Notes under the pieces: generated by a model
Seen by the model: only the letters and a program-made list of their open reading frames with translations
Databases searched by the model: none
What the model was told of the DNA's origin: nothing
Shown here: in pieces, positions 3,327 to 64,000 of the stretch
How positions within the stretch are numbered: the first letter of the stretch is position 1
Layout of the letters: each line of letters begins with the position of its first letter
Assembly: GCA_903865745.1 (NCBI GenBank)
Contig: CAIPKV010000012.1
Location: 10,953 to 74,952 of the forward strand
Direction: 5' to 3'
Source of the DNA: an uncultured Verrucomicrobia subdivision 3 bacterium
GTDB lineage: Bacteria; Verrucomicrobiota; Verrucomicrobiia; Limisphaerales; UBA11358
DNA: 64,000 bases
Made by a program: the position numbers and the translations under genes

Positions 3327-3629
3327 CGCGGTAACTCCATTAACTCGACGACTATTGAACTATGCTTTGCTGTGAATAACTTGGCAATAACTTATTGCGG
3401 CTGTGACGGCATTATTACCTGCCTGTAACCGGAGTGTAACAAAGTTGGTGTCTGTCGTCTCAAGTCAACGGCGGCAGGTAATTGAGCTGGTGAATCGGTG
3501 GCTGCGCGCGGTTGGTGCAGAAAGGTCATGATTATTTGCCGTCGCCACCCACAATACCCGGCCTCCAGCTTGAGCATGAGCCTGCGCGGACCGGTCCGCT
3601 ACCGTTTCCGACTAGAAATGGACCATTTG

Positions 3630-3885
3630 GGACCACTCCCCGACCGTTCAGGACCGGTCCTGAGCCATCCATTCCCGCTCCCGGACCGTCCAAGCTCGAT
3701 CCTAGACCGTTCAGGATCGCTCCCGAACCGTTTAAGCTCGCGCCTGAACCGTTTAAGCTCGATCCTAAACCGTTCAAGCTCGCGCCTGAACCGTTCAAGC
3801 TCGCGCCTGAACCGTTCAGGACCGGTCCTGGGTCGTTCATTTCCCGTCCTAGATGGTCCAAGACCGCTCCGGAACCATTCATATT
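3630..3885. repeat. Degenerate 21-bp tandem repeat (about 12 units; consensus ACCGTTCAAGCTCGCGCCTGA)
   Basis: Consecutive units visible at 3727-3820; heptad repeats appear in several ORF-track frames. Confidence 0.85.
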
Positions 3886-4166: not shown

Positions 4167-4295
4167 TGATTCACCACTTCCAGAGTTGCCGGTCGGGGAT
4201 GTTTCATTGCCATTCATTGCCCAAAGAGTAACAGCTATTATCCAATGAATGCAAGATGATTCGTGATTCTACGGGCAACTTTCGGCAGGTTATCT

Positions 4296-4381
4296 TGTGC
4301 AAATTCTGTGCAAGCCTGCGCGCTTGTGCAAAACTTGTGCAAACCGAAAGTCTAGCCGGGATTTGTGCAAATTCTGTGCAA
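4296..4381 (+). promoter_or_regulatory. Putative integrase arm-type sites: three pairs of TGTGCAA with 11-bp period
   Basis: TGTGCAA at 4296/4307, 4325/4336 and 4364/4375; a matching pair lies at 12675/12686 near the other att. Confidence 0.7.
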
Positions 4382-4716
4382 GGATTTCCGCCCCTTTGGG
4401 CAGGGCAACGGAGCTTTTCTCACGGAACGAACCAAACGCCCGCCACAGGACATTTACGGCACAAGGCGGGGCATTGTGGCGAGTGCGGACAGAGTGAAAA
4501 ATAACGTGTCCGCCACCCCCGTTTCGGTGTTCGTGCCGTGTCTCCCATTTTGAAACCCCGTATTGCGCCGATTGTCTAGCCCGCCAAAAAAAATTCCAAC
4601 CAGCCTATTGGCGCAAATACAAGGGCAGTCTGAAAAAAAATTCCAAACCTGTAAAAATTGCATGGAATCCGTGGCGGACTGCTAACGCAAAACTCGCAAT
4701 AAACACTGATTTAGCG

Positions 4717-7565: not shown

Positions 7566-8815
7566 GGTAACAGCAATGCTTGATAAAATTTGTTTCCGGC
7601 AATCGGATTTTGGTCAATCCACAGATACGGGCTGGACGTGAGAAGCACCGTTGCCCGTGTCGTCCATGTGCTTAAATCCGGCGACGATTGGATTTGATAT
7701 GTGCGGCCAACAACGCCGCTGATCGTGATGCCCGCAAAAGTGCCAATGCCGAGATTTGCGCCGGAAACCACTTGTGGTTGCGGATTGAATGAGATTTGCC
7801 GGATACGCTGATTGCCGGTGTCGGCAACAAAGATTGAACCTTGCGATAAACACAAACCGCTCGGATTGCTGAACAGTGCGAGATTTCCAGCACCATTGGT
7901 GTAGCCGGTTTGTGTGAAGCTGCCCGCCATCGTCACGACATTTGATAACACATTCATTTTTCTAATTGAACTTCCCGGAACACCGCTTGCAAAAATCACA
8001 TTGCCAGAACCGTCAACGCACATTTGAGAAATGGAATAGAACACGGCATTTGTGCCAGTGCCATCTGTATTATGCGCGTAAGGACTGCCATAGTTTCCGG
8101 CAATCGTTGTGACATTTTGAGTTTGATCAATTTTGCGAATTAAGTGATTTCCAGAATCCCAAACATATATGTTGTCAGCGGAATCAGTAGCCAATGCAGC
8201 GGGAGAGTTGAACGCTGTAAAAATTCCATTCCCGTCTGCATAACCACTGTTTCCAGAACCGGCGAACACGCTCAAAACGGTATTGGTGGCGTATCGGTAA
8301 ATTTTATTTCCTGAAGAAACATAAATGTTTCCCGCAGAATCGGAACAAACACCCATTAAAATACCACTGAAACTGCTAAAATTAGTATATGTGACGACTG
8401 CGCCAGCGGTGATTTTGTAAAGATAGTCAACGATTCCAGGCGTGGTTGCCCATATCGTGTTATTTTTGTCAACCGTCATACTACCAATGCCATACGTCGT
8501 TAGATTAACATTTGTTCCAGTTCCTTGAGCATTGCCGCCACCGCCCGCAAAAGTTGTAACGGTTCCATCTGGTGCAATTTTTCTGATTCTGTAATTGCCG
8601 GAATCCCAAACGAAAAGGTTGCTGTGTGAATCGGCGACAATCGCATTTGGATTATTGAACATCGTCAACTGGCCAACGCCGTCCAGATAACCCGAAAAGC
8701 CAGAACCGGCAAAGGTTTGAACAACTTCGTTGTTCGTGTCGTATGTCTGCGCGTGGGCGTGCCAGCCAAATGAAGCCATGACCGCCGCTAGAACCGCCAT
8801 GATTTTTGTTTTCAT
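7562..8815 (-). CDS. Secreted NHL-repeat (beta-propeller) protein
   Basis: Signal peptide from ATG 8815, repeated FAGSG..GY.DG.G..A.FN.P units, C-terminal YQIQ...KFYQ domain. Confidence 0.88.
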   Translation of the reverse strand: MKTKIMAVLAAVMASFGWHAHAQTYDTNNEVVQTFAGSGFSGYLDGVGQLTMFNNPNAIVADSHSNLFVWDSGNYRIRKIAPDGTVTTFAGGGGNAQGTGTNVNLTTYGIGSMTVDKNNTIWATTPGIVDYLYKITAGAVVTYTNFSSFSGILMGVCSDSAGNIYVSSGNKIYRYATNTVLSVFAGSGNSGYADGNGIFTAFNSPAALATDSADNIYVWDSGNHLIRKIDQTQNVTTIAGNYGSPYAHNTDGTGTNAVFYSISQMCVDGSGNVIFASGVPGSSIRKMNVLSNVVTMAGSFTQTGYTNGAGNLALFSNPSGLCLSQGSIFVADTGNQRIRQISFNPQPQVVSGANLGIGTFAGITISGVVGRTYQIQSSPDLSTWTTRATVLLTSSPYLWIDQNPIAGNKFYQALLLP

Positions 8816-12646: not shown

Positions 12647-12727
12647 GCGACGGTCAGCGGTTCGGGCGATATTTTGTGCAAACTCTGTGCAAACATTTTG
12701 AGAATCGCCTGTTTTTTCAATAAATAG

Positions 12728-12812
12728 TGGTGCGCGCGAGAGGACTTGAACCTCCAATCCTTACGGAACCAGATCCTAAGTCTGGCGTGTCTGCCAATTC
12801 CACCACGCGCGC
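12728..12812 (-). tRNA. tRNA-Leu(TAG), 85 nt
   Basis: GCGCGCG acceptor stem, CCAGA-CTTAGGA-TCTGG anticodon arm, long variable arm, GGTTCAAGTCC T-loop, encoded CCA. Confidence 0.97.
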
Positions 12813-15235: not shown

Positions 15236-15281
15236 TGGAGCCAGCTGTCAGGATTGAACTGACGACCCGCAGTTTACAAAA
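15236..15281 (-). other. att site: displaced 3' half of tRNA-Thr(TGT)
   Basis: Reverse complement TTTTGTAAACTGCGGGTCGTCAGTTCAATCCTGACAGCTGGCTCCA runs from the anticodon loop to CCA; 5' half absent; integrase adjacent. Confidence 0.88.
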
Positions 15282-15378: not shown

Positions 15379-16428
15379 ATGAAAACGACGAATTCCGACT
15401 TGTGGGAGCACGTTGAGACCAACCTGATACGGTATAAGCCGACTGGCGGCTACTATGTGAAGGCGAAGGTTCACGGCAAGAAGGTGCGGGAATCACTCAA
15501 CACTGACAAGCTCCCTGACGCACGGCGACAGGTTTCCGCCTGGCTGGCTCGTGTCCGAGGCGGCAGCACCCACGTCCGATCCGGCTTGTTGATGCAGACG
15601 CCGATTGAGGAATGGAAGAACTGGATCAACAACAAGGTGCAGGCACCACGCACGCGCGAATGCCGGCTGGACAACTGGCGAGTTGTCATCGAGCCCACCT
15701 GGCCACACCTGGCGACGACCAAAATTAACTCCGTGACCAGGCATGATGTCGAGAGCTGGCGGGACGGGCTGATTACGAAGCACAAATACTCCGTATCACA
15801 GGCCAACCAATGCCTAGGCACATTGAAACAGATTTTCAGGATAGCGGAGAACAAAGGGATGCTGTTGCATGATTCGCCGGCAGCTAGGGTGAAGCAGCTC
15901 AGGCAGCCGGCAAAGAAGTTGGTATTACCCACCAAAGCCGATTTCGCCAAGCTCCGGGCGGTAGTCTATGGCCGAAGCCCTAGGGGAGGCGAGCTGTTCG
16001 ATTTCCTGAGCCTCAGCGGAGCGCGTATTGACTCCGCAAACCACGTCACCTGGGGAAACGTGGACTGGACGGCGAACAAGCTCCACTTCACCGTGGCTAA
16101 GCGTGGAGGATACAGCATACCGCTATTTGCCCCGCTGAAGGCCTTCCTGTTGAAGATACGGCCACCCAGCCAGAAGGCGGACACCAAGGTCCTGAAGGTG
16201 AAGAGCATTAAGAAAGTTTTAGGCAATAGCTGCCGATGGATGGGAATACACCATCTTAGCCACCACGATTTGAGGCACTGGTTTGCCACACGAGCCATTG
16301 AGCAAGGCGTGGACATCCCCACCCTTAGCCGGTGGATAGGCCACAAAGACGGCGGAGCGCTGGCGCTGAGGGTGTACGGGCACCTACGGGACGAACATAG
16401 CCAGACCGAAGCACTGAAAATAACATGA
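15379..16428 (+). CDS. Tyrosine recombinase/integrase
   Basis: SGARIDS, HHDLRH, WIGH and VYGH catalytic motifs; ATG at 15379. Confidence 0.93.
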   Translation: MKTTNSDLWEHVETNLIRYKPTGGYYVKAKVHGKKVRESLNTDKLPDARRQVSAWLARVRGGSTHVRSGLLMQTPIEEWKNWINNKVQAPRTRECRLDNWRVVIEPTWPHLATTKINSVTRHDVESWRDGLITKHKYSVSQANQCLGTLKQIFRIAENKGMLLHDSPAARVKQLRQPAKKLVLPTKADFAKLRAVVYGRSPRGGELFDFLSLSGARIDSANHVTWGNVDWTANKLHFTVAKRGGYSIPLFAPLKAFLLKIRPPSQKADTKVLKVKSIKKVLGNSCRWMGIHHLSHHDLRHWFATRAIEQGVDIPTLSRWIGHKDGGALALRVYGHLRDEHSQTEALKIT

Positions 16429-16616
16429 ATCGCCTGCTCAGAGACCTCTTTTTCGCCAGCGCGCTTGGAGCGCTGCTTGGAAACGCCATCGGCATTTTTA
16501 TCCGCCGCCGCAACGAGCGCATGGCCGCAACTGCTCCTGTCCAGCGCAGCCGAGCCAGCCATGCACCCGAACTTGCCGTTCGGTGGTACGGGCGGAACCC
16601 GAACAGCATTGGCTGA
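16425..16616 (+). CDS. Small membrane protein
   Basis: ATGA overlap with the integrase; hydrophobic segment FFASALGALLGNAIGIFI. Confidence 0.45.
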   Translation: MNRLLRDLFFASALGALLGNAIGIFIRRRNERMAATAPVQRSRASHAPELAVRWYGRNPNSIG

Positions 16617-16638
16617 CCGCACGCGGCTCCTTTTTCGC

Positions 16639-16678
16639 CGAATCGCACACCACATGTGGTAGGAAGGAAGGGAGAGAG
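16639..16678 (+). repeat. Repeat copy A (palindrome ACCACATGTGGT plus purine tract)
   Basis: CGAATCGCACACCACATGTGGTAGGAAGGAAGGGAGAGAG. Confidence 0.9.
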
Positions 16679-16692
16679 AAGGAAAAGGACTT

Positions 16693-17019
16693 TCACAGGT
16701 CGAACGGGTCGAACGGCTTCTTGGTTCTCACGGAATCGATTTGCGCCGCTAGTGTGGAAGCCATGTCTAGCGAAGTTCCCAATAATAGGGCGATGTCGGC
16801 GTTGTTCTCAGGTCGGCATAAAATCAAAGTGAGAATTTCCTGGGCGAGAGCTTCGGCGTCCTGCTGGTCGAATTTGAAGCGCAACACGCGGACGATTTGC
16901 CTGAATTTTACCTCGTTTCGCTCCACCGACTCTTTAAGTTTGCGAACGTGCTCAGCGTGCTCGGTAAAAGCCGCGAAACTGGCAATTTGCAAGAACAGTT
17001 TTAATATATCGGTTTTCAT
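16693..17019 (-). CDS. Hypothetical protein ending FDPFDL
   Basis: 108 aa; ATGA-type coupling to the upstream gene. Confidence 0.7.
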   Translation of the reverse strand: MKTDILKLFLQIASFAAFTEHAEHVRKLKESVERNEVKFRQIVRVLRFKFDQQDAEALAQEILTLILCRPENNADIALLLGTSLDMASTLAAQIDSVRTKKPFDPFDL

Positions 17020-17633
17020 TTTCCTTCGATGGCCAGTGCCTTAATCGCGCCTTCGTTTCCCTTGGCGGCAGCCAAACGCCACAATCTGACCGCCTCGCCG
17101 ATGTCCCGCTCGACACCCTGCCCATTGGCGTAGCAAACACCGAGGTTGTATTGCCCGCCGGCCATTCCATATTTTGCCTGCTCGCGCCACTCTGCGATGG
17201 CATCCTCGATACAACCAGGGCCACTGGTGACCGTCTCTCCTTTCACTTCAACTACCCACGCAAACGGAAGGTTCATCGGCTCGTGGAACGAGTCTTGGAA
17301 CGTAAGGCCAGGCCACTGGCGGCCCAAGTATACAAGCAGACTTTCCGGGGCACCATTGGCTGATTCGAACATATAGACGAGTTCGTTTTCAGTTTCGCTT
17401 TCCAGCCGACAATCTCCAATACGTCGACAGCCCCAATTGGCATAGACCCATTCGAAGTAATCTTCCTCGCCTTCAATCACCTCTTGCGGTATCGGCATCA
17501 GCGAGTCCGGGTTAAAGGCTGAGGGAGGTTCCCCCAGCCCATACGGATGACTGCCAATGGCCCGTTTCTTGAAGTGTTCCAACTCCTCCTTGTTGCCGGT
17601 AATCGTCAACACATTGTAATACCAGTTAGGCAT
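17016..17633 (-). CDS. YubB/DUF1281 ferredoxin-like domain plus Sel1 repeat protein
   Basis: MPNWYYNVLTITG, W..ANWG and FES motifs; GQYNLGVCYANGQGV Sel1 repeat; GGAGG SD. Confidence 0.8.
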   Translation of the reverse strand: MPNWYYNVLTITGNKEELEHFKKRAIGSHPYGLGEPPSAFNPDSLMPIPQEVIEGEEDYFEWVYANWGCRRIGDCRLESETENELVYMFESANGAPESLLVYLGRQWPGLTFQDSFHEPMNLPFAWVVEVKGETVTSGPGCIEDAIAEWREQAKYGMAGGQYNLGVCYANGQGVERDIGEAVRLWRLAAAKGNEGAIKALAIEGK

Positions 17634-17682
17634 AACGGCCTCCGGTTTGTTTCACGCTGATTGCTTTTAACACGTTTTTCAT
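17626..17682 (-). CDS. Putative 18-aa leader peptide MKNVLKAISVKQTGGRYA
   Basis: AGGAG SD upstream; stop overlaps the start of the next gene (ATGCCTAA). Confidence 0.35.
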   Translation of the reverse strand: MKNVLKAISVKQTGGRYA

Positions 17683-17761
17683 ATTTTCTTTTCTCCTGTC
17701 TCTCATTCTCCACTCCGCCAAACTTTCTGCTACGTGAATTTGCAACCAAATGAAAAGATGT

Positions 17762-18541
17762 TCAGCCTGGTGTTTTCGGCTCAATTCTTGACGGGTAAAT
17801 CCCCCAGTAAAACGGGTCGAAGTTCTGGATGTATTTCTCGATTTCATAGTAGGAATTGACGAACCCAGTAAAATCCTTCCACCCGGCCAGCGGTCTGCCT
17901 TTTTCGGGCGAGAAAACGAAAAGTCGCGGCTGCATGAATAGCAGCGCGCTTTCAATTTGGGGTTCCAGCCGCCGCTTGGCAGCCTCGATTTGCAACTCCA
18001 ATTCCCGTGGCTCCCGCCACAGCTTCATTGGCACCATAGTTTGGCACTTGGCGAGGCATACGACTAAGCCGTTGACGTTGTCGCTCCAGGCTTTTTCCTT
18101 TTCCGCCACCACCTTGCACCGCCAATATTCGGCGTGCCGTAGCAGCCGGTATTTTTCGATTAGCCTCGTCAATTCCACGTTTGGCTTCTGGAGGTTCTGC
18201 AGGTTGCCATTGTGATACCAGCCGCCGAACAGGATAAAGGCAGAATGGTATTCCGGGCTCAAGTTGCCCAGGGCCACGAAGAACGGCTCCAATTCAGCCC
18301 AATTTGCGACGTGAATTCTGCCGGCAATCACCCTGTATGTTTCGGCGATTTCCGCTTGGTTCGGGTCACTCGCGGCCACCAACCCACATAGGCGGGTTCG
18401 TTGCTTTCCCAAAAACTCCTGCTGATGTTTCCCCAGCGAGGTTTCGACATCCACGACAGGCTGATTATTTTTGCTGCCGGCATCGCCGACCCCGCCCATG
18501 TCGAGCTGCGGGTTGTTATTCGGAATGAGTGGAGTGTCCAT
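17762..18541 (-). CDS. Hypothetical protein
   Basis: ATG immediately after the relaxase stop; about 259 aa. Confidence 0.6.
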   Translation of the reverse strand: MDTPLIPNNNPQLDMGGVGDAGSKNNQPVVDVETSLGKHQQEFLGKQRTRLCGLVAASDPNQAEIAETYRVIAGRIHVANWAELEPFFVALGNLSPEYHSAFILFGGWYHNGNLQNLQKPNVELTRLIEKYRLLRHAEYWRCKVVAEKEKAWSDNVNGLVVCLAKCQTMVPMKLWREPRELELQIEAAKRRLEPQIESALLFMQPRLFVFSPEKGRPLAGWKDFTGFVNSYYEIEKYIQNFDPFYWGIYPSRIEPKTPG

Positions 18542-18542
18542 A

Positions 18543-19484
18543 TCAGGAGATGTCGATTTGAGGTTGCGGTTTGGTTTCCGGCGCGGCCACCACTTGCGAT
18601 TGGACGTGCCCCTGTGCCTCGCGGATGTCCTTGAGAATTTCTTGGACGTCTGCGCTGGTAAATCCCGAATCATTGAATGCTTCTTGCAGCGCTCCGGGCA
18701 ACGCTGCACTTGGGTTTATTATGGTTGTCATGTTTTCTGTTGGGTTTTCTCCCCAGCCCACCGCACCGGCTTGACCGGTGAGCAGACCGAGGAAATTGAT
18801 GAGCGTGGCCAGCCGGATGCGGCGGCCTTGGTACTTGAATGAAATGAGCGACCCGTCTTTGCGCGTGCGGAAGTCCGTGACTTTTCCGGCTTTGACGAGC
18901 TTGGCCCAGCGGTCTTTCCGCAGGTTTCCCTTTTCATCCAGCAGCGCCAGCGCGAGCAGACGGACATCCAGTTTTTTGGCCTTGGGATACATCGTGAACG
19001 CCTTGCCTCTGCCCCTTCCCCGACCGGAAATAAATTGGAGCGTCCAGGCAAACGACTGAAGCTCCTTGAGGAATTTCGGCCGCAAGTCGAGCGTCCGACG
19101 GCCATTGGAGTTGGAGAAAATCAGATGGATGTGCCGGGTGGAGGTGTCGCGATGCACCCAGCCCAGCATGGAGGCGATACCCATCAGCTTTTGAAAATCC
19201 TTCGCCGCCTGCAACAGTCGCCGGTCAATGTCATCGAGCTGTTCGGCCGTGGCGTTACGCGGAGTTTGGACGGATATAACTGCAGTCCGGCAGACGCGCT
19301 TGGCTCTTGGATCATGGTGGTAGGCCAGCAGCAGTTCGGCGAGTTGCCGGGGAGTTCCCCTAGCCACGCCGGCATCCAAACCGTCGTATGTGCGGGACAC
19401 CTTTTTGGTGTTGGCAAAATACTTTATGGCCTCCACCGGACGGGAGGTGGCACGCAGGTTGATGATGGCGTAGGGAGCGTTCAT
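18543..19484 (-). CDS. HUH relaxase (MOBP/VirD2-like)
   Basis: N-terminal AIKY, WVHRDTSTRHIHLIFSN His-triad motif; coupled to MobC. Confidence 0.82.
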   Translation of the reverse strand: MNAPYAIINLRATSRPVEAIKYFANTKKVSRTYDGLDAGVARGTPRQLAELLLAYHHDPRAKRVCRTAVISVQTPRNATAEQLDDIDRRLLQAAKDFQKLMGIASMLGWVHRDTSTRHIHLIFSNSNGRRTLDLRPKFLKELQSFAWTLQFISGRGRGRGKAFTMYPKAKKLDVRLLALALLDEKGNLRKDRWAKLVKAGKVTDFRTRKDGSLISFKYQGRRIRLATLINFLGLLTGQAGAVGWGENPTENMTTIINPSAALPGALQEAFNDSGFTSADVQEILKDIREAQGHVQSQVVAAPETKPQPQIDIS

Positions 19485-19765
19485 GGCCAGAGTCCTTTCA
19501 GTTTTTGCACCGCTTCATCCACCGCTTGGGCGTCCACCGAGGTGCCCCTGGACACGCGGAGCGATTGATTGATAAGCACCCCCAGGCGGCGCATCTCCGT
19601 CGCCGCCTCGACCAGCTTGCTGATGTCCAATCCCGAAGTGTGTGCCAGGACTATGAATGCCACCGTGCGACCACGAAGCCCCCGCTTAAGCCCCATAAGT
19701 TGCTCCGCCAGTTGCCGGGGAAGCCTGGCACGACCAAAGGAAACACTGGTGGTCTTGCGGTTCAT
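19481..19765 (-). CDS. mobC: MobC-like relaxosome accessory protein
   Basis: MRRLGVLINQ resembles the L.RIGNNLNQ motif; ATGA overlap with the relaxase. Confidence 0.75.
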   Translation of the reverse strand: MNRKTTSVSFGRARLPRQLAEQLMGLKRGLRGRTVAFIVLAHTSGLDISKLVEAATEMRRLGVLINQSLRVSRGTSVDAQAVDEAVQKLKGLWP

Positions 19766-19858
19766 GGCTGTCCTCCTTCAGGTGAACCAGACACCCCCGA
19801 GGCGCTGTCGGCAGGGGGAAGTCCGTCAGAGTTATGTGTGCGGCAAGCTACGCTGTTC

Positions 19859-19910
19859 TGCGCCTTCGGCGCATCACCGCTGCTTGGCAAAGGGGCATCC
19901 GCCCCCTTGC
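19859..19910. promoter_or_regulatory. Candidate oriT
   Basis: Hairpins TGCGCC-TTC-GGCGCA and GCAAAGGGG-CATCCG-CCCCCTTGC, 100-150 bp upstream of mobC. Confidence 0.45.
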
Positions 19911-20554
19911 GACCCTGGTTGCTGGCCGCCGATGCGGCCAGAGCAGCCTCCACCGCCCGCCCGACATTAGGGGCGGAGACGGTGCGTTCGATGACGCGGA
20001 GGCATCCCTTGAGCACATCGGCTTCGATGACCTGTAGGGCGGCCGCAGGAAGCCTGATTGCGCCAATGACAGTGAGTCTGGCGCGGATCAGCGCCGACAG
20101 CGTGGGAGATGATTTATGAGTGGACATCCCTTCGTTGTAATAGAAGGGGGGGTGTCTGTTCCTAAACTATTTTGAAAAATCTTTTGGGGAAGTGTTATAG
20201 ACAGTCGCAGCCCTCGATAGTTGCCCCTTGGGCTTGCGCCCAGGCAAACAAATCGGGTCGGGACGTTGAACAGACTTTTGGGGATCTCGTAAGCGAGCGG
20301 GGTGATGACAACGAAGTCTGACCGAAATGCCGGCAGCACGCCGCGTGTAGCTTGCAGACTGTGAGCCCAAACCTTTTGGTGCAGCTCAGGAACTCCCCCG
20401 TCTGCCAATTGGCCTGACGCCAGGATTGAAACTGTTCATGGGCGTCAGTCTGAAGTCGGTTGCTAAATATCATAAGCATCGTACAGACATTATGAACGGC
20501 AGGGGGTGTCAGTTGCCGCAGAAACTGAGTTGTTAGAGTGCAACGTGCTCTCGA

Positions 20555-20593
20555 CGAATCTCACACCACATGTGGTAGGAAGGAAGGAGAGAG
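20555..20593 (+). repeat. Repeat copy B
   Basis: CGAATCTCACACCACATGTGGTAGGAAGGAAGGAGAGAG; one substitution and one indel versus copy A. Confidence 0.9.
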
Positions 20594-20627
20594 TAAAGTT
20601 CTGTCTCTAGCGTCATTCCTTTTAGGG

Positions 20628-21038
20628 TTAGAGGTCGAACGGGTCGAACGGTGCCCCGATATTTCGCGCAGCAAATTCTCGGACTATGACTTCGCGCCGG
20701 TCGGCAGGAATCATGTCCCATTTACTCGGGTCACAATTTTCAGGTAACGCCAAATTGTTTAGGCGGCACCACTCATGCAATTCGACCAAAAACGTTACAA
20801 CCCAAAACAATCCCTGTGGCGATGAACGAATTATTTCACCGGCGACTTTTATCCATTCTGGGTTAATCGCCCATTTGGATGTTTCCTTTTTCCGGCAAAA
20901 AGGCGAGTGACCGGTATGACTATCATCATGGTTAAAGTCCTCTGCGTAGTAATGTTCGCAGAGCTCATCACTCACTTCGGTTTCCGGGTCTAATTTGCGC
21001 GGAAGGGTTCTGAATTGGTCTCGCACAGGTTGATTCAT
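20628..21038 (-). CDS. Hypothetical protein ending FDPFDL (paralogue of 21049-21516)
   Basis: ELCEHY, SKWAIN and WCRLN..L.LP..CDPSKWDM motifs shared with the neighbour. Confidence 0.75.
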   Translation of the reverse strand: MNQPVRDQFRTLPRKLDPETEVSDELCEHYYAEDFNHDDSHTGHSPFCRKKETSKWAINPEWIKVAGEIIRSSPQGLFWVVTFLVELHEWCRLNNLALPENCDPSKWDMIPADRREVIVREFAARNIGAPFDPFDL

Positions 21039-21048
21039 GGCGTGTCCT

Positions 21049-21516
21049 TTATTTATGGCTGGCGACTTCCCAGTCGCTGTTTAGCGCCAGACCTTCCAAT
21101 ATGGCTTCGCGCTGTTCGCCGGACAGCATGTCCCATTTGCTGGGGTCGCAATCGTCAGGCAGCTCAAGCCCGTTCAGGCGGCACCACGCTTTCAGCTCGA
21201 CCAAAAACTTGACGACGCTCTCCACCTCATCTTCTGTGCATTGTTTCCTTTCGTAATCTGTGCCGGCCAGCTTCCGCATGAAGCCTTTTTCCACGCAGAC
21301 TTCCACCAGCCATTCCCGGTTAATCGCCCATTTCGATTTCCCGCTCCTCGCGTTTAACGGCCAGCAGGGAATTTTTTTGTCTGCCCAATCAATCCAGCTT
21401 TCAGCGGCGTAATGTTCGCAGAGTTCGCGCAGCGCTTCAGCCTCCGGTTCAATTATACGGGGACGAGTGGCGGATTGGTTCAGTTTTAGTTTTGTCGTCG
21501 AGGCGGTGTTTTTCAT
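21049..21516 (-). CDS. Hypothetical protein (paralogue of 20628-21038)
   Basis: Same shared motifs. Confidence 0.75.
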   Translation of the reverse strand: MKNTASTTKLKLNQSATRPRIIEPEAEALRELCEHYAAESWIDWADKKIPCWPLNARSGKSKWAINREWLVEVCVEKGFMRKLAGTDYERKQCTEDEVESVVKFLVELKAWCRLNGLELPDDCDPSKWDMLSGEQREAILEGLALNSDWEVASHK

Positions 21517-21518
21517 AC

Positions 21519-21563
21519 TGGCACGCTGGTCGGGAATCGAACCCGACCGAAACCAATCAGCGT
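21519..21563 (-). ncRNA. Candidate tRNA-like minihelix (acceptor stem plus T arm plus CCA; no D or anticodon arm)
   Basis: ACGCTGA-TTGGTTTCGG-TCGGG-TTCGATT-CCCGA-CCAGCGT-G-CCA. Confidence 0.5.
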
Positions 21564-21638
21564 GAAACCACCCACGATAACTATTTTAATCTGGAGATTA
21601 AAACCGCTCTACATCTATTTTGTGAAATCTTTTCCAAG

Positions 21639-24600
21639 TCAGGAAAAGTGCTCGCGCGCCTTGTCGAGAAACACCGGTAGCATCGTCCGCCGTTCGGGAT
21701 TGTTGTCAGGGTGAATGCACTCTTCCAAGGTTTCCCGCACACAGAGCAGAATACATTTCTTTCGGCATCGGCTGACGGCGGTATAGAGCCAGCGCCGGTT
21801 GGTAACGAGCGATTTGGTCATCACCACGATGCCGGTGTCGCACTCCACGCCCTGGGAAGAATGTCCGGTGCGGCACCACGGCCAGTCCACCTCGTCGAGT
21901 GTCAACCAGCCCACATTCTTCGAGCCATCGGCAGCCTTGTATGTGACTTGAATGGTGTCCGAGGCTTGCCCTGTGGTTACAGTGTCATCATAGACCGTCA
22001 CCAAGCTACCCTTTCGTATCTGGTAGGCAGCGGCCTTTGCCCCGACCTCCACCACCGCCAAAACATCACCTTTTTTGAAATCAAAAATCGTGGACTTATT
22101 GTGGCCAGCCGCCGCCCGCGCCATTTGGAGAATGTTCGAGTTCACCTTGAAGATGTCCGTGTGCCGAGGACAAAAGACCATGAAATTGGATTCCGGTGGA
22201 AGTGCGGTCACAAATCCGGCCGCCGCTTGCATGACCAGGAACTCGCTGGTCATATAATGCACCTCCATGCCTTGCCCGATTTTTCCCGGTACTTGGCCGA
22301 GATGGACTTGTTCAAAAAAATCAACAATGCCGCTGGACAGATGGTTGCTGGTTCGCCAATTGTGCGACAGCTGCGTCCCGGTCACTCCGGGTGTGCCGGG
22401 ATTTCTCTGTACCCACCTGACCAGGTCTTCCCCCACCAAACCCGGCCCGACCGGCATGTTTTGACCCGGCCCGACCGTGAGCAGCACGCGCTTGCCGGGA
22501 GCCCAGCTCATCGCCATCTGACCGGCCACGTCGCAATCCACCTGCCCAATCTCATCCCCGGCGAACACGTCGGCGTCCAAGGCGACGAAGCGTTTCTTTT
22601 GCTTGTGGGGCCTGATGTGATAGGTGGAGTGAATCGTTTCCACGGCCACGCGCTTATTGAGCCGTTCTCGCAGTTGCTGGGCACTTAAATGAGTGGCGCT
22701 GCCCACCCTTGTGACCAGCTTTTTATTCCGCGCAGCCTTCAACTCATTGGCGAGCGTTTCCGTCTTGCCGGTGCCGGGCGCACCGCTGATGACCTCGACG
22801 GAACCGCCGCCGGCACCTTGTTCAATGATCCGCCAGGCGAAGCGCAGTTCCCCGCGAACATAGTCGGCCCACCCGACCCAATCGCCTTTTTCGGGCACCC
22901 AGGCATTGCAGGAAAGGACATGCCGGGAGGCCAGCAGCCAATGCAATGACTGCAACAACCCTTCGTTGCCGAAAATCGCGATGAGCAGGTCGTAAAGGTG
23001 GCTGGACGAGTGGTACACGTCCCCATTTTCAGCCAGCCAAACTCTGACAAGTTCCAACAATAAATCACGCGGTAGCACTTCGTCATCAAACGGGTTTTTG
23101 AATTTCTGGGCGGCAGCGTGTTCCCTGTCCAGAGTTGCAAGCAGGTTGGTAAAACGCGGGTCGCCCTTCAAACGCTGTCGGATTTCCTTTTCGGTAATTG
23201 CCGGACGGGCGGGCGGAGTCTGGCTCTCCATTTGCCCGATTGCCAGCAGCGCCTCCATCGGCTTGAGTTTTTTCTTCTGGGGTTTCCGTGGTCTGGCTGC
23301 TGGGGTGTCATCGCAACTCATGGCGTCAATAATGTCGGGTGGCAGTTTGGAATAAATCTCGATGTTCTTTGAGCTGTCGCTGGCATCAGGCGAGTCCTCT
23401 GGTTTTGCAGGCCTGAGAAAGAACCAGACCGGGGCATCCCATTGGCTCTTGCGACCACGTTTTACCACGATGAAACCCATTTCCTTTAGTGCATCCCGGA
23501 CTGAGGTTTCTCCGTACGTCGTATGGGGGAGCACTTGAGAGATATGGAAGGTCATCTGTCCGCACTTCAGCACCGCCTTTTCCACCGCTGCCAGCACGGC
23601 ATCCGTTTCCCGAGCATATTTCTCGTAACAGCGTTCGATGTCCCGTTCCGTCCAGTCCTGCCAGGTCGCATATTTATTATGCGGAGCACCGTTCAACAAA
23701 AGCGCTTCGTTAAACGCCTTCTCGATTTCATCCAGTACCGGCTTGAATTCGGGAAGGGCAAAAACCAATTGTTTCGCCTTCCCCACTTTTACGCCCCGGT
23801 CCCAAAGAGACTTCCAGGACAGCAGGCAATTGATGTAAAGCCGCGTTCGGTCAGCCCTGTATTTGGTCATCGAGAGGTATTTTCCGCCGGAGCTGCGCGG
23901 CCCGATTTCCCGGCCTAGGTCTTTGCAAAATGTATTGAACGCCTTTTGCGGCAGGTCATTGAAGAGCTTTTGCACCCAAGCCAGGGGTTTCCCCAACACC
24001 TTCGCGATTTTTTCCTCTGACACGTTGTAGGCGCGCAACTGTAAAGCAGACACCTGCTCGCTCAACCCAGCCAGGCTGCCGCCCTGTTTACCCTGCTTGC
24101 CTTTGGCCGGCTTAGCTTGTGGCATCACCGAAATGGCGTCCTTGATGGTCTGGATTTCGACGTTGCCCATGAGCTTCTCCGGTCGCCAAAATGCAAAGGA
24201 TTCCAGGAATCGGGAGGGCCGGTTGCAATTCTTTGAAGCTCCTTCATCCAGACTAAGCGGCCCGGCATAGCCATTTGATTTAATTTCATCCCACAGACAG
24301 TACACGACCAGCTTGGCATCTTCCGTATCCACCCAGTCCGCAAAATAAATTCCGGCATGCACCCCGTTGGGCGTCTGGCCCGCCCAGGCGACCTCCGGAA
24401 TTTTTTCCAGCACGTTCAGCAGTTCGGCCTTTTCGCCGGGAGTCGCGCCCCGCCCCTTGACCCATTCGCCCTGGGCATTCTGCTTCTGTATTTCAAAATC
24501 CAATGTAAGGTCATGCCGCTTGCCGGGATTGATAGAACGATGCTTTCCCCGCTTTTGTTTTTCAATTTCAACTGGTTTGTCCGGGTCATCCCGCCGCCGC

Positions 24601-24836
24601 GCCTTGTCCAACAACTCCGGTGAAAAAATCGCGTTGACGTAGTACTCGAACTTGTAACCGCGAATTTTTAGCGCCCGGGAGTAGAGTTGAAAATTCCGCA
24701 ACTTGGTAATCTTATTTTGCGACACGAATACTTCGCCACGGGTGAGCTGCTGAATTTTCTGAATGTGCAGGTGCGAACCACCCAAGACAGGTGCGGTTGG
24801 TGGCGCTGACGGGGCGGATGGCGTGGTGGTGGACAT
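21639..24836 (-). CDS. AEP-type primase fused to a RecD-like SF1 helicase
   Basis: LTLDFE, QTPNGVH and LDEGASKNCNRPSR (AEP-like); SGAPGTGKT, GDEIGQ, TGHSSQGVE and LYTAVSR (RecD-like). Confidence 0.75.
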   Translation of the reverse strand: MSTTTPSAPSAPPTAPVLGGSHLHIQKIQQLTRGEVFVSQNKITKLRNFQLYSRALKIRGYKFEYYVNAIFSPELLDKARRRDDPDKPVEIEKQKRGKHRSINPGKRHDLTLDFEIQKQNAQGEWVKGRGATPGEKAELLNVLEKIPEVAWAGQTPNGVHAGIYFADWVDTEDAKLVVYCLWDEIKSNGYAGPLSLDEGASKNCNRPSRFLESFAFWRPEKLMGNVEIQTIKDAISVMPQAKPAKGKQGKQGGSLAGLSEQVSALQLRAYNVSEEKIAKVLGKPLAWVQKLFNDLPQKAFNTFCKDLGREIGPRSSGGKYLSMTKYRADRTRLYINCLLSWKSLWDRGVKVGKAKQLVFALPEFKPVLDEIEKAFNEALLLNGAPHNKYATWQDWTERDIERCYEKYARETDAVLAAVEKAVLKCGQMTFHISQVLPHTTYGETSVRDALKEMGFIVVKRGRKSQWDAPVWFFLRPAKPEDSPDASDSSKNIEIYSKLPPDIIDAMSCDDTPAARPRKPQKKKLKPMEALLAIGQMESQTPPARPAITEKEIRQRLKGDPRFTNLLATLDREHAAAQKFKNPFDDEVLPRDLLLELVRVWLAENGDVYHSSSHLYDLLIAIFGNEGLLQSLHWLLASRHVLSCNAWVPEKGDWVGWADYVRGELRFAWRIIEQGAGGGSVEVISGAPGTGKTETLANELKAARNKKLVTRVGSATHLSAQQLRERLNKRVAVETIHSTYHIRPHKQKKRFVALDADVFAGDEIGQVDCDVAGQMAMSWAPGKRVLLTVGPGQNMPVGPGLVGEDLVRWVQRNPGTPGVTGTQLSHNWRTSNHLSSGIVDFFEQVHLGQVPGKIGQGMEVHYMTSEFLVMQAAAGFVTALPPESNFMVFCPRHTDIFKVNSNILQMARAAAGHNKSTIFDFKKGDVLAVVEVGAKAAAYQIRKGSLVTVYDDTVTTGQASDTIQVTYKAADGSKNVGWLTLDEVDWPWCRTGHSSQGVECDTGIVVMTKSLVTNRRWLYTAVSRCRKKCILLCVRETLEECIHPDNNPERRTMLPVFLDKAREHFS

Positions 24837-25045
24837 GATTTATTTTATTGGTTTTAGCCTCTCAATGAAGAAAGTTTCGCAGGACTCCATTCTCATCGCG
24901 CAAAACCGGTTCCTCGGACTCGATGCCGTCAACCTCGACGACCCGTCCGACCGGGAACTGGTTTTGGCCAGTCCGCGATAGCCAACGCGAGGGCGCTCGC
25001 CGGCTATCTGGGGACCAGCGACAGCAGTCGAAAGAGTTTTCTCCT

Positions 25046-25080
25046 TCTCCCTTCCTCCGCACCACATGTGGTGGGCGATT
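25046..25080 (-). repeat. Repeat copy C (inverted relative to A and B)
   Basis: Reverse complement AATCGCCCACCACATGTGGTGCGGAGGAAGGGAGA; 31/35 identical to copy A. Confidence 0.88.
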
Positions 25081-25126
25081 AGCTCGTTCCCGCTCTGGCC
25101 GGAAGCTTTAGTGTTGGCGGGGTTGT

Positions 25127-62170: not shown

Positions 62171-64000
62171 ATGAAAGCAAACCCGTCTCGTTTCGGTGCC
62201 GTCATCCTGTTTGGGACCCTGTTCGCCACCCACATCCTTCTCGCCCAAGGAACCGTTTTCACTTACCAAGGGCGGCTCAATGCCGGCGGCAATCCCGTAA
62301 CCGGCAATTACGATCTTGCCTTCGCGGTCTTCGACGCCGCCAGCGGCGGCAATCAAGTGGGCAACACACTGGCGGTTACGCCCACGACGGTCACCAACGG
62401 GTTGTTCATGGTGACACTGGATTTCGGCAGCGGCATTTTTCCCGGCGCGCAGCGCTGGCTTGAAATTGGCGTCCGCACCAACGGGAGCAGCGACGCCTAT
62501 GCCATCTTGTCTCCGAGACAGGCGGTGACCGCCACGCCTTACGCCATCACCGCCGCGAATGCCACCACCGCCACCACTGCGGCAAGCGTTTCGGGAACCA
62601 TCAGCGGCAGCCAGATTCAAAGCGGCACGGTCACCAGCACGCAACTAGCGTCGGGAACCGCTGCCGCCAATCTTGCCGCTTCAGGTCAAAGCGGCGTGGC
62701 TTCGGGCGGAATTGTCCTTTCGTCAGATGCCAACGCCACCAATCTGCTGAACAGCGGCTATGCAAAGATTGGTCAAACCGCATTGGGAGAGCTTTGGCAG
62801 ACTCTGGGTCAGGCAGTGGCACCCACACCACGTTACTACCAGACCGCAGTTTGGACGGGAACGGAATTGATCATCTGGGGCGGCTTCGATGGCACTAATT
62901 ATTTGAACACCGGACGTCGTTATAATCCGGCGCTCAATACTTGGTCCTCCGTCACGCCTTACGGCGCTCCCACCGCCCGGACCCGGCATACTGCCGTGTG
63001 GACCGGAAAAGAAATGATTATTTGGGGAGGGCAAAACGGAACAGATCAACTGAACGACGGCTGGCGTTACAATCCGTCCGCTGATTCATGGGCAACCATG
63101 TCTGTTAGCAATGCGCCCGCCGCGCGGCAAAATCATTCGGCCATCTGGACCGGCACGAACATGATTATTTGGGGCGGTTACGATGGCAGCAGCTGGCTCA
63201 AGACCGGGGCGAGTTACAACCCGACACTGGATCAATGGACACTTATTACCACAAACAACGCGCCTGCCGCGCGCGACGATCACACTGCGGTCTGGACCGG
63301 CACCGACATGATTGTCTGGGGTGGCTACAACGGCAGCAGCCGGTTCAACACGGGGGCGCGTTACAATCCATCCGCGAACACTTGGACAGCCATCTTGACG
63401 AATAGCGCGTTCGCTGCCCGGGAAAATCATACGGCGGTGTGGACTGGAAACAAAATGATCATCTGGGGAGGAAGTGCCGGCAGCACCCGGTTTAACACAG
63501 GCGCGAGCTATGACCCGGCCAGTGACAGTTGGACTGCCATTTTCACCAACAGCGCGCTCGCCGTGCGAGAGGAGCATTCCGCCGTCTGGACCGGCAGCAA
63601 GATGGTCATCTGGGGCGGCAGCAGCGGCAGCACGGAATACAATAATGGCGGAAGCTACGATCCTTCAACAGACAGTTGGACTATTGTCGCGACGAATAAC
63701 GCGCCGTCGGCGCGATATTTGCAAAGCATGGTTTGGACTGGCAGCCGGATGCTCGTCTGGGCCGGCTATGACGGAAACGTCGGGCTTGATGACGGTGGCA
63801 TTTACGACGTAACGAATAATATCTGGAACATGATGGCCTATTCCGCCCCCACTCCCCGCAACTCGCAAGTATCCGTCTGGACCGGCACCAACCTGCTCAT
63901 CTGGGGCGGCTACAACGGGAGTGCCTTAAGCAATGGCGCATCATATAATCTTGCGTCAGACACCTGGACGCCAATATCAACTTGGACGAATGTGCTTTCA
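62171..64000 (+). CDS. Secreted Kelch-repeat protein (runs off the window end)
   Basis: ATG at 62171, TVFTYQGRL...LDFG N-terminal domain, repeated HTAVWTG.EMIIWGG...YNP...W; not in the ORF track because no stop is in the window. Confidence 0.85.
   Translation, partial: MKANPSRFGAVILFGTLFATHILLAQGTVFTYQGRLNAGGNPVTGNYDLAFAVFDAASGGNQVGNTLAVTPTTVTNGLFMVTLDFGSGIFPGAQRWLEIGVRTNGSSDAYAILSPRQAVTATPYAITAANATTATTAASVSGTISGSQIQSGTVTSTQLASGTAAANLAASGQSGVASGGIVLSSDANATNLLNSGYAKIGQTALGELWQTLGQAVAPTPRYYQTAVWTGTELIIWGGFDGTNYLNTGRRYNPALNTWSSVTPYGAPTARTRHTAVWTGKEMIIWGGQNGTDQLNDGWRYNPSADSWATMSVSNAPAARQNHSAIWTGTNMIIWGGYDGSSWLKTGASYNPTLDQWTLITTNNAPAARDDHTAVWTGTDMIVWGGYNGSSRFNTGARYNPSANTWTAILTNSAFAARENHTAVWTGNKMIIWGGSAGSTRFNTGASYDPASDSWTAIFTNSALAVREEHSAVWTGSKMVIWGGSSGSTEYNNGGSYDPSTDSWTIVATNNAPSARYLQSMVWTGSRMLVWAGYDGNVGLDDGGIYDVTNNIWNMMAYSAPTPRNSQVSVWTGTNLLIWGGYNGSALSNGASYNLASDTWTPISTWTNVLS

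Follow-up and report, generated by a model that had tools for sequence, protein, structure and literature searches.

Initiator-linked sites in described replicons and the repeats A, B and C

Cis-acting sites linked to a replication initiator are of a known kind. Origins inside initiator genes are established: the lambda ori lies in gene O, and SPP1 has oriL within gene 38 and another copy, oriR, at a different place. The alpha primase-helicase of satellite phage P4, a combination of Toprim and superfamily 3 (SF3) domains, binds two separated cis sites, ori and crr, which lie several kb apart around its gene and consist of clusters of octamer repeats. In the IncQ plasmid RSF1010, the primase RepB', which has the archaeo-eukaryotic primase (AEP) fold, starts each strand at one of two inverted 40-nt sites, and replication proceeds in the leading-strand mode only (PMC8567376). 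ColE2 Rep, also an AEP, binds a single short origin and makes its primer there (PMC4538821). Here we analyze three copies of one 40-50-bp motif, termed repeats A, B and C, in a stretch of 64,000 nt from an uncultured Verrucomicrobia subdivision 3 bacterium (contig CAIPKV010000012.1; the whole stretch is called the window). The repeats reside in an integrated mobilisable element, the parts of which were assigned from Pfam, gene calls and comparison with relatives. This element encodes a primase-helicase of 1065 residues (21639-24836, minus strand).

The site family resembles the RSF1010 sites ssiA and ssiB, the ColE2 origin and the lambda origin in gene O, but it is a member of no described origin type. 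Its unusual features are the single long asymmetric unit, its purine tract, the presence of a copy in the linker of the candidate initiator's own gene, and the nature of that protein as a fusion of an AEP-like part with a superfamily 1B (SF1B) helicase. AEP primase-SF1B helicase fusions are rare in bacteria, and the literature searched describes no origin for one.

The exact sequence ACCACATGTGGT occurs three times in the window (at 16649, 20565 and 25061), against a chance expectation of 0.11 matches with at most one mismatch. Repeats A (16640-16689, plus strand) and B (20556-20598, plus strand) are direct copies, identical at 35/37 positions in an ungapped alignment (16635-16671 versus 20551-20587). 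Repeat C (25037-25082, minus strand) is inverted and complementary to A at 31/35 positions. The two direct and one inverted repeats described by the first-pass annotation of this DNA are therefore real. The copies extend further, and are less symmetric, than suggested by the palindrome around which they had been drawn. All three copies consist of a TAATCG or GAATCG box, a core (CACCACATGTGGTG or CACCACATGTGGT) and a purine tract of 20-30 nt; repeat A has the GAATCG box, the core CACACCACATGTGGT and a purine tract of 29 nt. In each of A, B and C the purine run contains 23-25 purines in 26 positions. The specific part of the site has the consensus TAWTCG, 3-5 nt, then CAC(C/G)ACATGTGG, while the purine/pyrimidine tract is conserved in composition and not in sequence.

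We searched the whole assembly (3,626,501 bases) by pattern and with an nhmmer profile built from 12 site copies. Both searches returned A, B and C only, the next match having an E value of 0.6. This was the check for dispersed repeats that the first-pass annotation had named. With only three copies in a 3.6-Mb genome, the motif is not a repetitive extragenic palindromic element (REP) or a miniature inverted-repeat transposable element (MITE). The site family is specific to the element, where A, B and C fill three of the six intergenic gaps and are the only repeated non-coding motif reported.

Repeat A lies in a 76-bp convergent gap between a 63-aa gene and a 108-aa gene whose product ends in FDPFDL. 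Repeat B lies 29 nt past the stop of a 136-aa FDPFDL gene and is located 76 nt upstream of the ATG of a 94-aa Cys-rich gene. An association with FDPFDL genes had been noticed before: A and B each follow the stop of such a gene by 3-29 nt, but this is not general in the relatives, where FDPFDL genes are not always beside a repeat. Repeat C is found in a gap of 290 bp that separates dinB from the primase-helicase gene, and stands 65 nt past the stop of a decayed remnant of a conserved 67-71-aa gene (24763-24981, plus strand). The apparently opposite sense of C had been taken to speak against a simple terminator. However, C follows this plus-strand remnant in the same sense in which A and B follow their genes. 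Its orientation is thus no exception, and the argument drawn from it falls away.

The primase-helicase gene and the sites in its relatives

The 1065-residue protein has an AEP-like N-terminus, a helical middle part and a RecD2-like SF1B helicase at aa 677-1053. The AEP-type motifs in the N-terminus are DLTLDFE, GVHAGIYF and LDEGASKNCNRPSRF, and those invariant in the family are DLTLDFE, GxHAGIYF and D...NCNRPSRF. Searches of Pfam, NCBIfam and PHROGs gave no match in the N-terminus, and no sequence relationship of the protein to ColE2 Rep was detectable. A full-length structure model was poor (predicted local distance difference test, pLDDT, of 52); a model of aa 1-450 reached a pLDDT of 70-89, of medium confidence, only over aa 110-200. 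The best-probability Foldseek matches of this second model were Prim-PolC (0.97), the LigD PolDom (0.90) and the CAPP Prim-Pol, all of them weak (E >= 0.09). The family is small: at E < 1e-30, a set of 1.84 billion proteins yielded only 17 cluster representatives. A single-protein scan of reference-genome contigs and a search of 401 genomes of the same class recovered generic RecD-like helicases only; the relatives came from metagenome contigs, numbered here as L loci.

The relatives of the window clade have protein identities of 52-84%. Wherever their contigs extend far enough past the gene, an inverted pair of sites, 4.2-5 kb apart, is present around the primase-helicase gene. The pairs are located at 1940-1981 and 7006-7047 in L017, at 8719-8745 and 13227-13253 in L019, at 1030-1071 and 5311-5352 in L020 (= L032), and at 2207-2230 and 6597-6620 in L021. 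The nhmmer profile detected exactly two copies in each of these contigs. The contig of L022 is truncated and retains a single site (3338-3375), the copy expected just past the stop codon. The elements of this clade share a compact module plan of two divergent operons, with small genes on the left and the primase-helicase on the right, capped on both sides by inward-facing sites. The window fits this plan, as its remnant at 24763-24981 corresponds to the gene situated ahead of the 'a' copy in L017 and in L019-L021. The 'b' copies in L019-L022 lie 3-30 nt past the stop of the primase-helicase gene; in ColE2, too, origin and rep gene are close together. When arms were compared within and between elements, the matches were 21/24 versus 13-15 for L021, 24/24 versus 21 for L019, and 21 versus 19 for L017. 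Thus, the arms of one element are often closer to each other than to their positional counterparts, as expected from co-evolution with one binding protein.

In the deep clades (31-37% identity) the site has a diverged form, consisting of TTCGTTCG, (T/A)CACATATG, GGT and the purine tract. In all of these clades one copy is located within the coding sequence of the primase-helicase, in the linker between the primase-like and helicase parts (L025, 11389-11434; L029, 2835-2884; L030, 2474-2525; L031, 2813-2868; L042 and L040, 8318-8369; L038 and L041, 8369-8424). The DNA motif CATATGTNNCGAACG is common to L025 and L030, but the reading frames differ: L025 translates it as AYVAN and L030 as TICVER. 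Its preservation in two reading frames indicates a constraint on the nucleic acid and not on the protein. As a point of method, the survival of a non-coding motif inside a gene, in a different reading frame, is a means of linking the motif to that gene as its partner. The second copy lies 2.3 kb upstream and inverted in L025 (9050-9095) and L029. In L042 it lies 4.3 kb upstream, 45 nt before an open reading frame (ORF), in direct orientation. Sites of ~40 nt are thus present once per strand in B/C and in the pairs of L017, L019, L020, L021, L025 and L029, which are inverted, while the copies of L042 are direct, as are A and B. Inversion is therefore usual but not obligatory.

Over the range of 31-100% protein identity, the sites track the primase-helicase gene, not the recombinase type or the relaxase family, and a site was found with every relative of the 1065-residue protein that has enough flanking DNA. 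By these comparisons, the site family is linked to the primase-helicase gene and to no other, and is constrained at the nucleotide level. Since no other gene is present alongside the site family in all elements, the best reading is that the sites are where the primase-helicase acts. Repeats A, B and C would then be cis-acting recognition, origin or priming sites of the element's own AEP-like primase/SF1B-helicase. We favour this reading tentatively, giving it a chance that approaches, but falls short of, one in two. It agrees in part with the first-pass annotation, which had suggested origin or priming sites for the AEP-helicase in analogy to ssiA/ssiB: the co-occurrence with the gene supports the first element of this proposal, but the sites, which lack a hairpin and iterons and stand 2.3-5 kb apart, are not of the ssi type.

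Proposed working and comparison with described origins

In the proposed scheme, the primase-helicase would bind the specific box and core part of the site. The homopurine-homopyrimidine tract may serve as an easily opened region, or its pyrimidine strand may be the template for a purine primer. With B on one strand and C on the other, both strands of the excised circle would receive a start, following the logic of RSF1010. Repeat A would be a second copy on the same strand, probably acquired when the mobilisation block joined in between two copies. Carried further, the element may exemplify an undescribed replicon type, in which an AEP-primase/SF1B-helicase would recognise hairpin-less sites of 40-50 bp, make a purine primer on the homopyrimidine tract and replicate the circle by strand displacement. 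Ancestrally, one site would have been in the linker of the protein's own gene and a second one kilobases away, and the hosts would probably belong to the Planctomycetota-Verrucomicrobiota group. We regard this extended proposal as doubtful. A defined 40-50-bp site that is conserved at 31-100% protein identity is an immediate substrate for binding, priming and minimal-replicon work. Moreover, the site together with the gene could yield a replicon for bacterial groups poor in genetic tools; to our knowledge, few such tools exist for the groups concerned here.

The likeness to ssiA and ssiB of RSF1010 consists in near-identical, sequence-specific sites of ~40 nt, present once per strand and associated with a primase that has the AEP fold in RSF1010 (PMC8567376, PMC4538821) and probably has it here. 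In addition, the core contains GTG triplets, which form the start context in ssiA. Several differences stand against this. The ssi hairpin at nt 7-27 is essential, whereas none is predicted here: when we folded 12 copies on both strands, z-scores ranged from -1.4 to +0.1 with a stem of only 4 bp, and only L021a has an 8-bp stem of its own. Folding thus gives no support for a hairpin, a cruciform or an ssi-type structure. Furthermore, ssiA and ssiB lie side by side in oriV beside the RepC iterons, whereas the present sites are separated by 2.3-5 kb and are not accompanied by iterons. RSF1010 has a separate RepA, whereas the primase is here fused to an SF1B helicase, and copies can be direct here, as in A/B and L042.

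With the ColE2 origin, which serves an AEP-type initiator (PMC4538821), the sites share the single, non-iterated, asymmetric unit, the candidate initiator here being AEP-like. In contrast to ColE2, each element has two or three copies with a long purine tract, and its protein has a fused helicase and an N-terminus that falls into no Pfam family. The deep clades recall lambda O and SPP1, with one copy in the linker of the candidate initiator gene, a second copy kilobases away and a motif kept across frames. However, those origins consist of an AT-rich region and arrays of at least four iterons, and are served by initiators other than primase-helicases. Unlike in lambda, the copy of the window clade follows the gene instead of lying within it. 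There is only one unit at each place, and some copies but not others have an AT-rich flank. The P4 system is similar in having separated sites around a primase-helicase gene, but the present protein is of the AEP-like plus SF1B type and its sites are single units.

Several observations weigh against the assignment of the sites as recognition, origin or priming sites of the primase-helicase. The sites are without the stable hairpin that ssiA and ssiB require, they have no adjacent iteron array, and their AT-rich flank is inconstant. The direct copies of L042 and of A/B mean that one site per strand is not obligatory. The identification of the N-terminus as an AEP-type primase is probable, not proven, resting on the motifs and on weak Foldseek scores. 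The element of the window has lost two small genes of the replication module, and may be unable to replicate alone and depend on a helper. An operator or roadblock role of the same protein-DNA contact is inseparable from an origin role by sequence alone. Finally, the gene next to or around each copy has the pyrimidine-first strand as its sense strand, which also fits an element acting at the level of RNA.

This last point is the starting point for a reading in which the sites would function on the sense strand of transcripts, by Rho loading or termination, in processing or stability, or by pairing with antisense read-through from the convergent integrase operon. Most copies are 3-30 nt from a stop codon, and in its YC-rich, G-poor composition the tract is reminiscent of a Rho-binding site. 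Transcripts of the integrase operon would contain, in their untranslated 3' end, sequence complementary to B and C. However, there is no conserved RNA structure and no U tract. Signals for a host factor are expected to be common in a genome, whereas the motif is confined to this element, and at least 15 specific nucleotides are conserved across clades, beyond the needs of a compositional signal. A terminator in the middle of the coding sequence of an essential primase-helicase, in all deep clades, is also hard to justify. Note that the uniform orientation represents only about five independent placements, making for weak statistics (roughly p = 0.03). We consider an RNA-level role quite unlikely. 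An intrinsic terminator was rejected on account of the missing hairpin and U tract, a consensus scan that was negative at the sites, and the copy located mid-gene in the deep clades.

Alternatively, the sites could be operators or roadblocks, at which the primase-helicase or a small protein of the module binds and controls or insulates the replication, mobilisation and integrase blocks, with no replication start involved. The evidence for a sequence- and element-specific duplex site applies equally to this reading. The sites are found at operon boundaries, including B with its position ahead of the first mobilisation gene, L019a at 47-73 nt upstream of the 140-aa gene heading the relaxase block, and the upstream copy of L042 before its ORF. 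In contrast, neither orientation yields a coherent set of regulated genes, as A and the 'b' copies face convergent gene ends only, and for the copy in the linker coding sequence there is no promoter that it could control. The sites do not overlap with any sigma-70-like promoter, and the conserved purine tract has no obvious role in an operator. The small-gene candidates for the binding protein are absent or decayed in the window, yet the window's sites are well preserved. On balance, an operator function appears unlikely. The sites were also rejected as promoters in either orientation, at least as their main function: no sigma-70-like match was found at them, and the implied transcripts would be mostly antisense.

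Two further readings of the repeats were discarded. A coding reading (...IAHHMW) fails because frames are not conserved between copies and A and B are in non-coding gaps; ORFs of 96 aa and 229 aa over C and A are without support. DnaA boxes are not indicated, as only the CCACA core fits (5/9, judged by eye) and is broken in L019-L021.

Coming back to the favoured assignment to the primase-helicase, the recombinases and relaxases of the elements provide a comparison. The recombinase is of the tyrosine type in the window, L019, L021, L022 and L025 and of the large serine type in L020/L032, and yet the site family is the same. The relaxases of the window and L019 are not similar by BLAST, whereas their sites share 21/24 positions.

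The first-pass annotation had offered the repeats as recombination sites for the excision or inversion of modules, with B and C as ends resembling terminal inverted repeats. In favour of recombination, driven by a recombinase or through passive homology patches for module exchange, the elements differ in the order of their modules, and the breakpoints fall at the sites: the mobilisation block is flanked by the direct copies in the window, but found beyond the 'a' copy in L019-L021. Moreover, A and B, as 95% identical direct repeats, could delete the mobilisation block by homologous recombination. The repeats mark points at which replication, mobilisation and integration modules re-assort among these elements. 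Against a recombination function, the sites are independent of the recombinase type, and the deep clades carry one copy inside a gene, where inversion or deletion would destroy that gene. There is no core architecture of arm, spacer and arm; in L017 and L019-L021 the palindrome is no longer intact, and within each element both arms have lost it identically. No rearranged variant was seen among the contigs with an identical protein, L023 and L024 being colinear with the window; for most other contigs read, the neighbouring genes are reported to be largely the same. Passive exchange probably results from the presence of the repeats rather than being what they are for. These results disfavour the earlier proposal, and a recombination function is in our estimate highly unlikely. 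More specifically, recombinase sites of the att, res, hix or dif kind were rejected in view of the shared sites with either recombinase type, the non-conserved dyad and the copy inside a coding sequence. Nor do B and C qualify as transposon ends, as there is no transposase between the arms, one arm is located inside the gene in the deep clades, and the L042 copies are direct.

The position of the 'a' copies and of B just upstream of the mobilisation operon is the usual place of an origin of transfer (oriT), and SF1B helicase domains accompany relaxases in proteins of the TraI/TrwC type. Both facts would suit sites that are nicked by the relaxase (nic), or sites at which the SF1B helicase is loaded in conjugative DNA processing. 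However, the similar sites alongside unrelated relaxases do not conform with this, and no relaxase was observed in the vicinity of the L025 sites. If an element had two or three nic sites, of which some are inverted and one is in a coding sequence, transfer would be truncated or inverted, and the hairpin-forming inverted repeat typical of an oriT is missing. A role in transfer is therefore extremely unlikely, and the oriT/nic assignment was rejected.

Gene content of the element and its surroundings

With the primase-helicase gene pointing to the right, the gene order starts with a block of four rightward genes (NADAR, 219 aa, 519 aa and DinB), followed by C in the same direction. The primase-helicase gene and the 155-aa and 136-aa genes follow, also rightward, then B pointing left, the rightward mobilisation block, A pointing left, and finally the 63-aa and integrase genes, both leftward. 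At the integrase end, the 3' half of a tRNA-Thr(TGT) gene (15236-15280, minus strand) abuts the integrase promoter region and is a probable remnant of the attachment site. No partner copy of this half tRNA, which would mark the far end of the element, was found in the window or the assembly. The only tRNA-Thr(TGT) found on the contig of the window lies ~6.8 kb past the window end, on the opposite strand and with a different T arm.

The tyrosine integrase (15379-16428) and a conserved 63-aa membrane-type protein (16425-16616) are encoded together on the plus strand (15379-16616). This operon ends 23 nt before A, and the same arrangement is found at the 'b' copy of L020 and L022. The membrane-type protein of 60-63 aa (MNRLFRDLFYAA...RPNSIG) always follows the recombinase gene, of tyrosine or serine type, and is encoded at 5382-5573 in L020, 3404-3595 in L022 and 13274-13456 in L025. 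Within the convergent 60-aa gene of the L025/L029 clade, the last 41 nt of the primase-helicase gene are repeated with 78% identity (L025, 13218-13258 and 13355-13395; L029, 4669-4709 and 4806-4846), which suggests that the C-terminal extension in this clade may have arisen by local duplication.

The mobilisation block between A and B (16693-20479, minus strand) comprises genes for a 94-aa Cys-rich protein, proteins of 121 aa and 94 aa, a MobA/VirD2-like relaxase (18543-19484, minus strand), a 259-aa protein, a Sel1 protein and, next to A, the 108-aa FDPFDL protein (16693-17019, minus strand). The 94-aa Cys-rich ORF (20195-20479, minus strand) was missed by gene callers. Its protein sequence is conserved in L017 (alignment A2), and it probably heads the mobilisation operon. 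Downstream of the primase-helicase gene and inside the B-C interval are two tandem paralogues of 155 aa and 136 aa (20628-21516, minus strand), the latter (20628-21038, minus strand) ending in FDPFDL and adjoining B. On the other side of the primase-helicase gene, the 67-71-aa gene is 5'-truncated and frameshifted in the window but intact in L017, L019, L020 and L021. Its neighbour in L017, a Zn-ribbon FDPFDL gene, is deleted in the window.

The hexapeptide FDPFDL followed by the stop codon recurs at the C-termini of small proteins of these elements that are not related in other respects, among them a CxxC Zn-ribbon protein encoded divergently from the primase-helicase gene. Besides the two genes of the window, it occurs in L017 (2204-2470 and 6293-6751), L019 (9629-9901) and L020 (1756-1995). 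It looks like a shared docking tail.

No iterons, tandem repeats or other repeat arrays were found in the element. A second inverted pair of 24 nt with 88% identity (17644-17667 and 21550-21573) is unrelated in sequence to A, B and C; it occupies the two AT-rich gaps of the element (17634-17761 and 21517-21638, ~30-33% G+C). Elsewhere in the window, ~13 tandem 21-bp units (iterons of the ACCGTTCA... type) and four copies of TTGTGCAAATTCTGTGCAAG are present (3601-3881, 4295-4382 and 12674-12693), upstream of a tRNA-Leu gene (12728-12812). The region looks like a second, separate replicon or control region of plasmid or phage type beside the element studied here. Towards the window end, seven tandem units of 147 nt (62819-63909) lie within a long plus-strand ORF (62171 to beyond 64000) that encodes a repeat protein unrelated to A, B and C.

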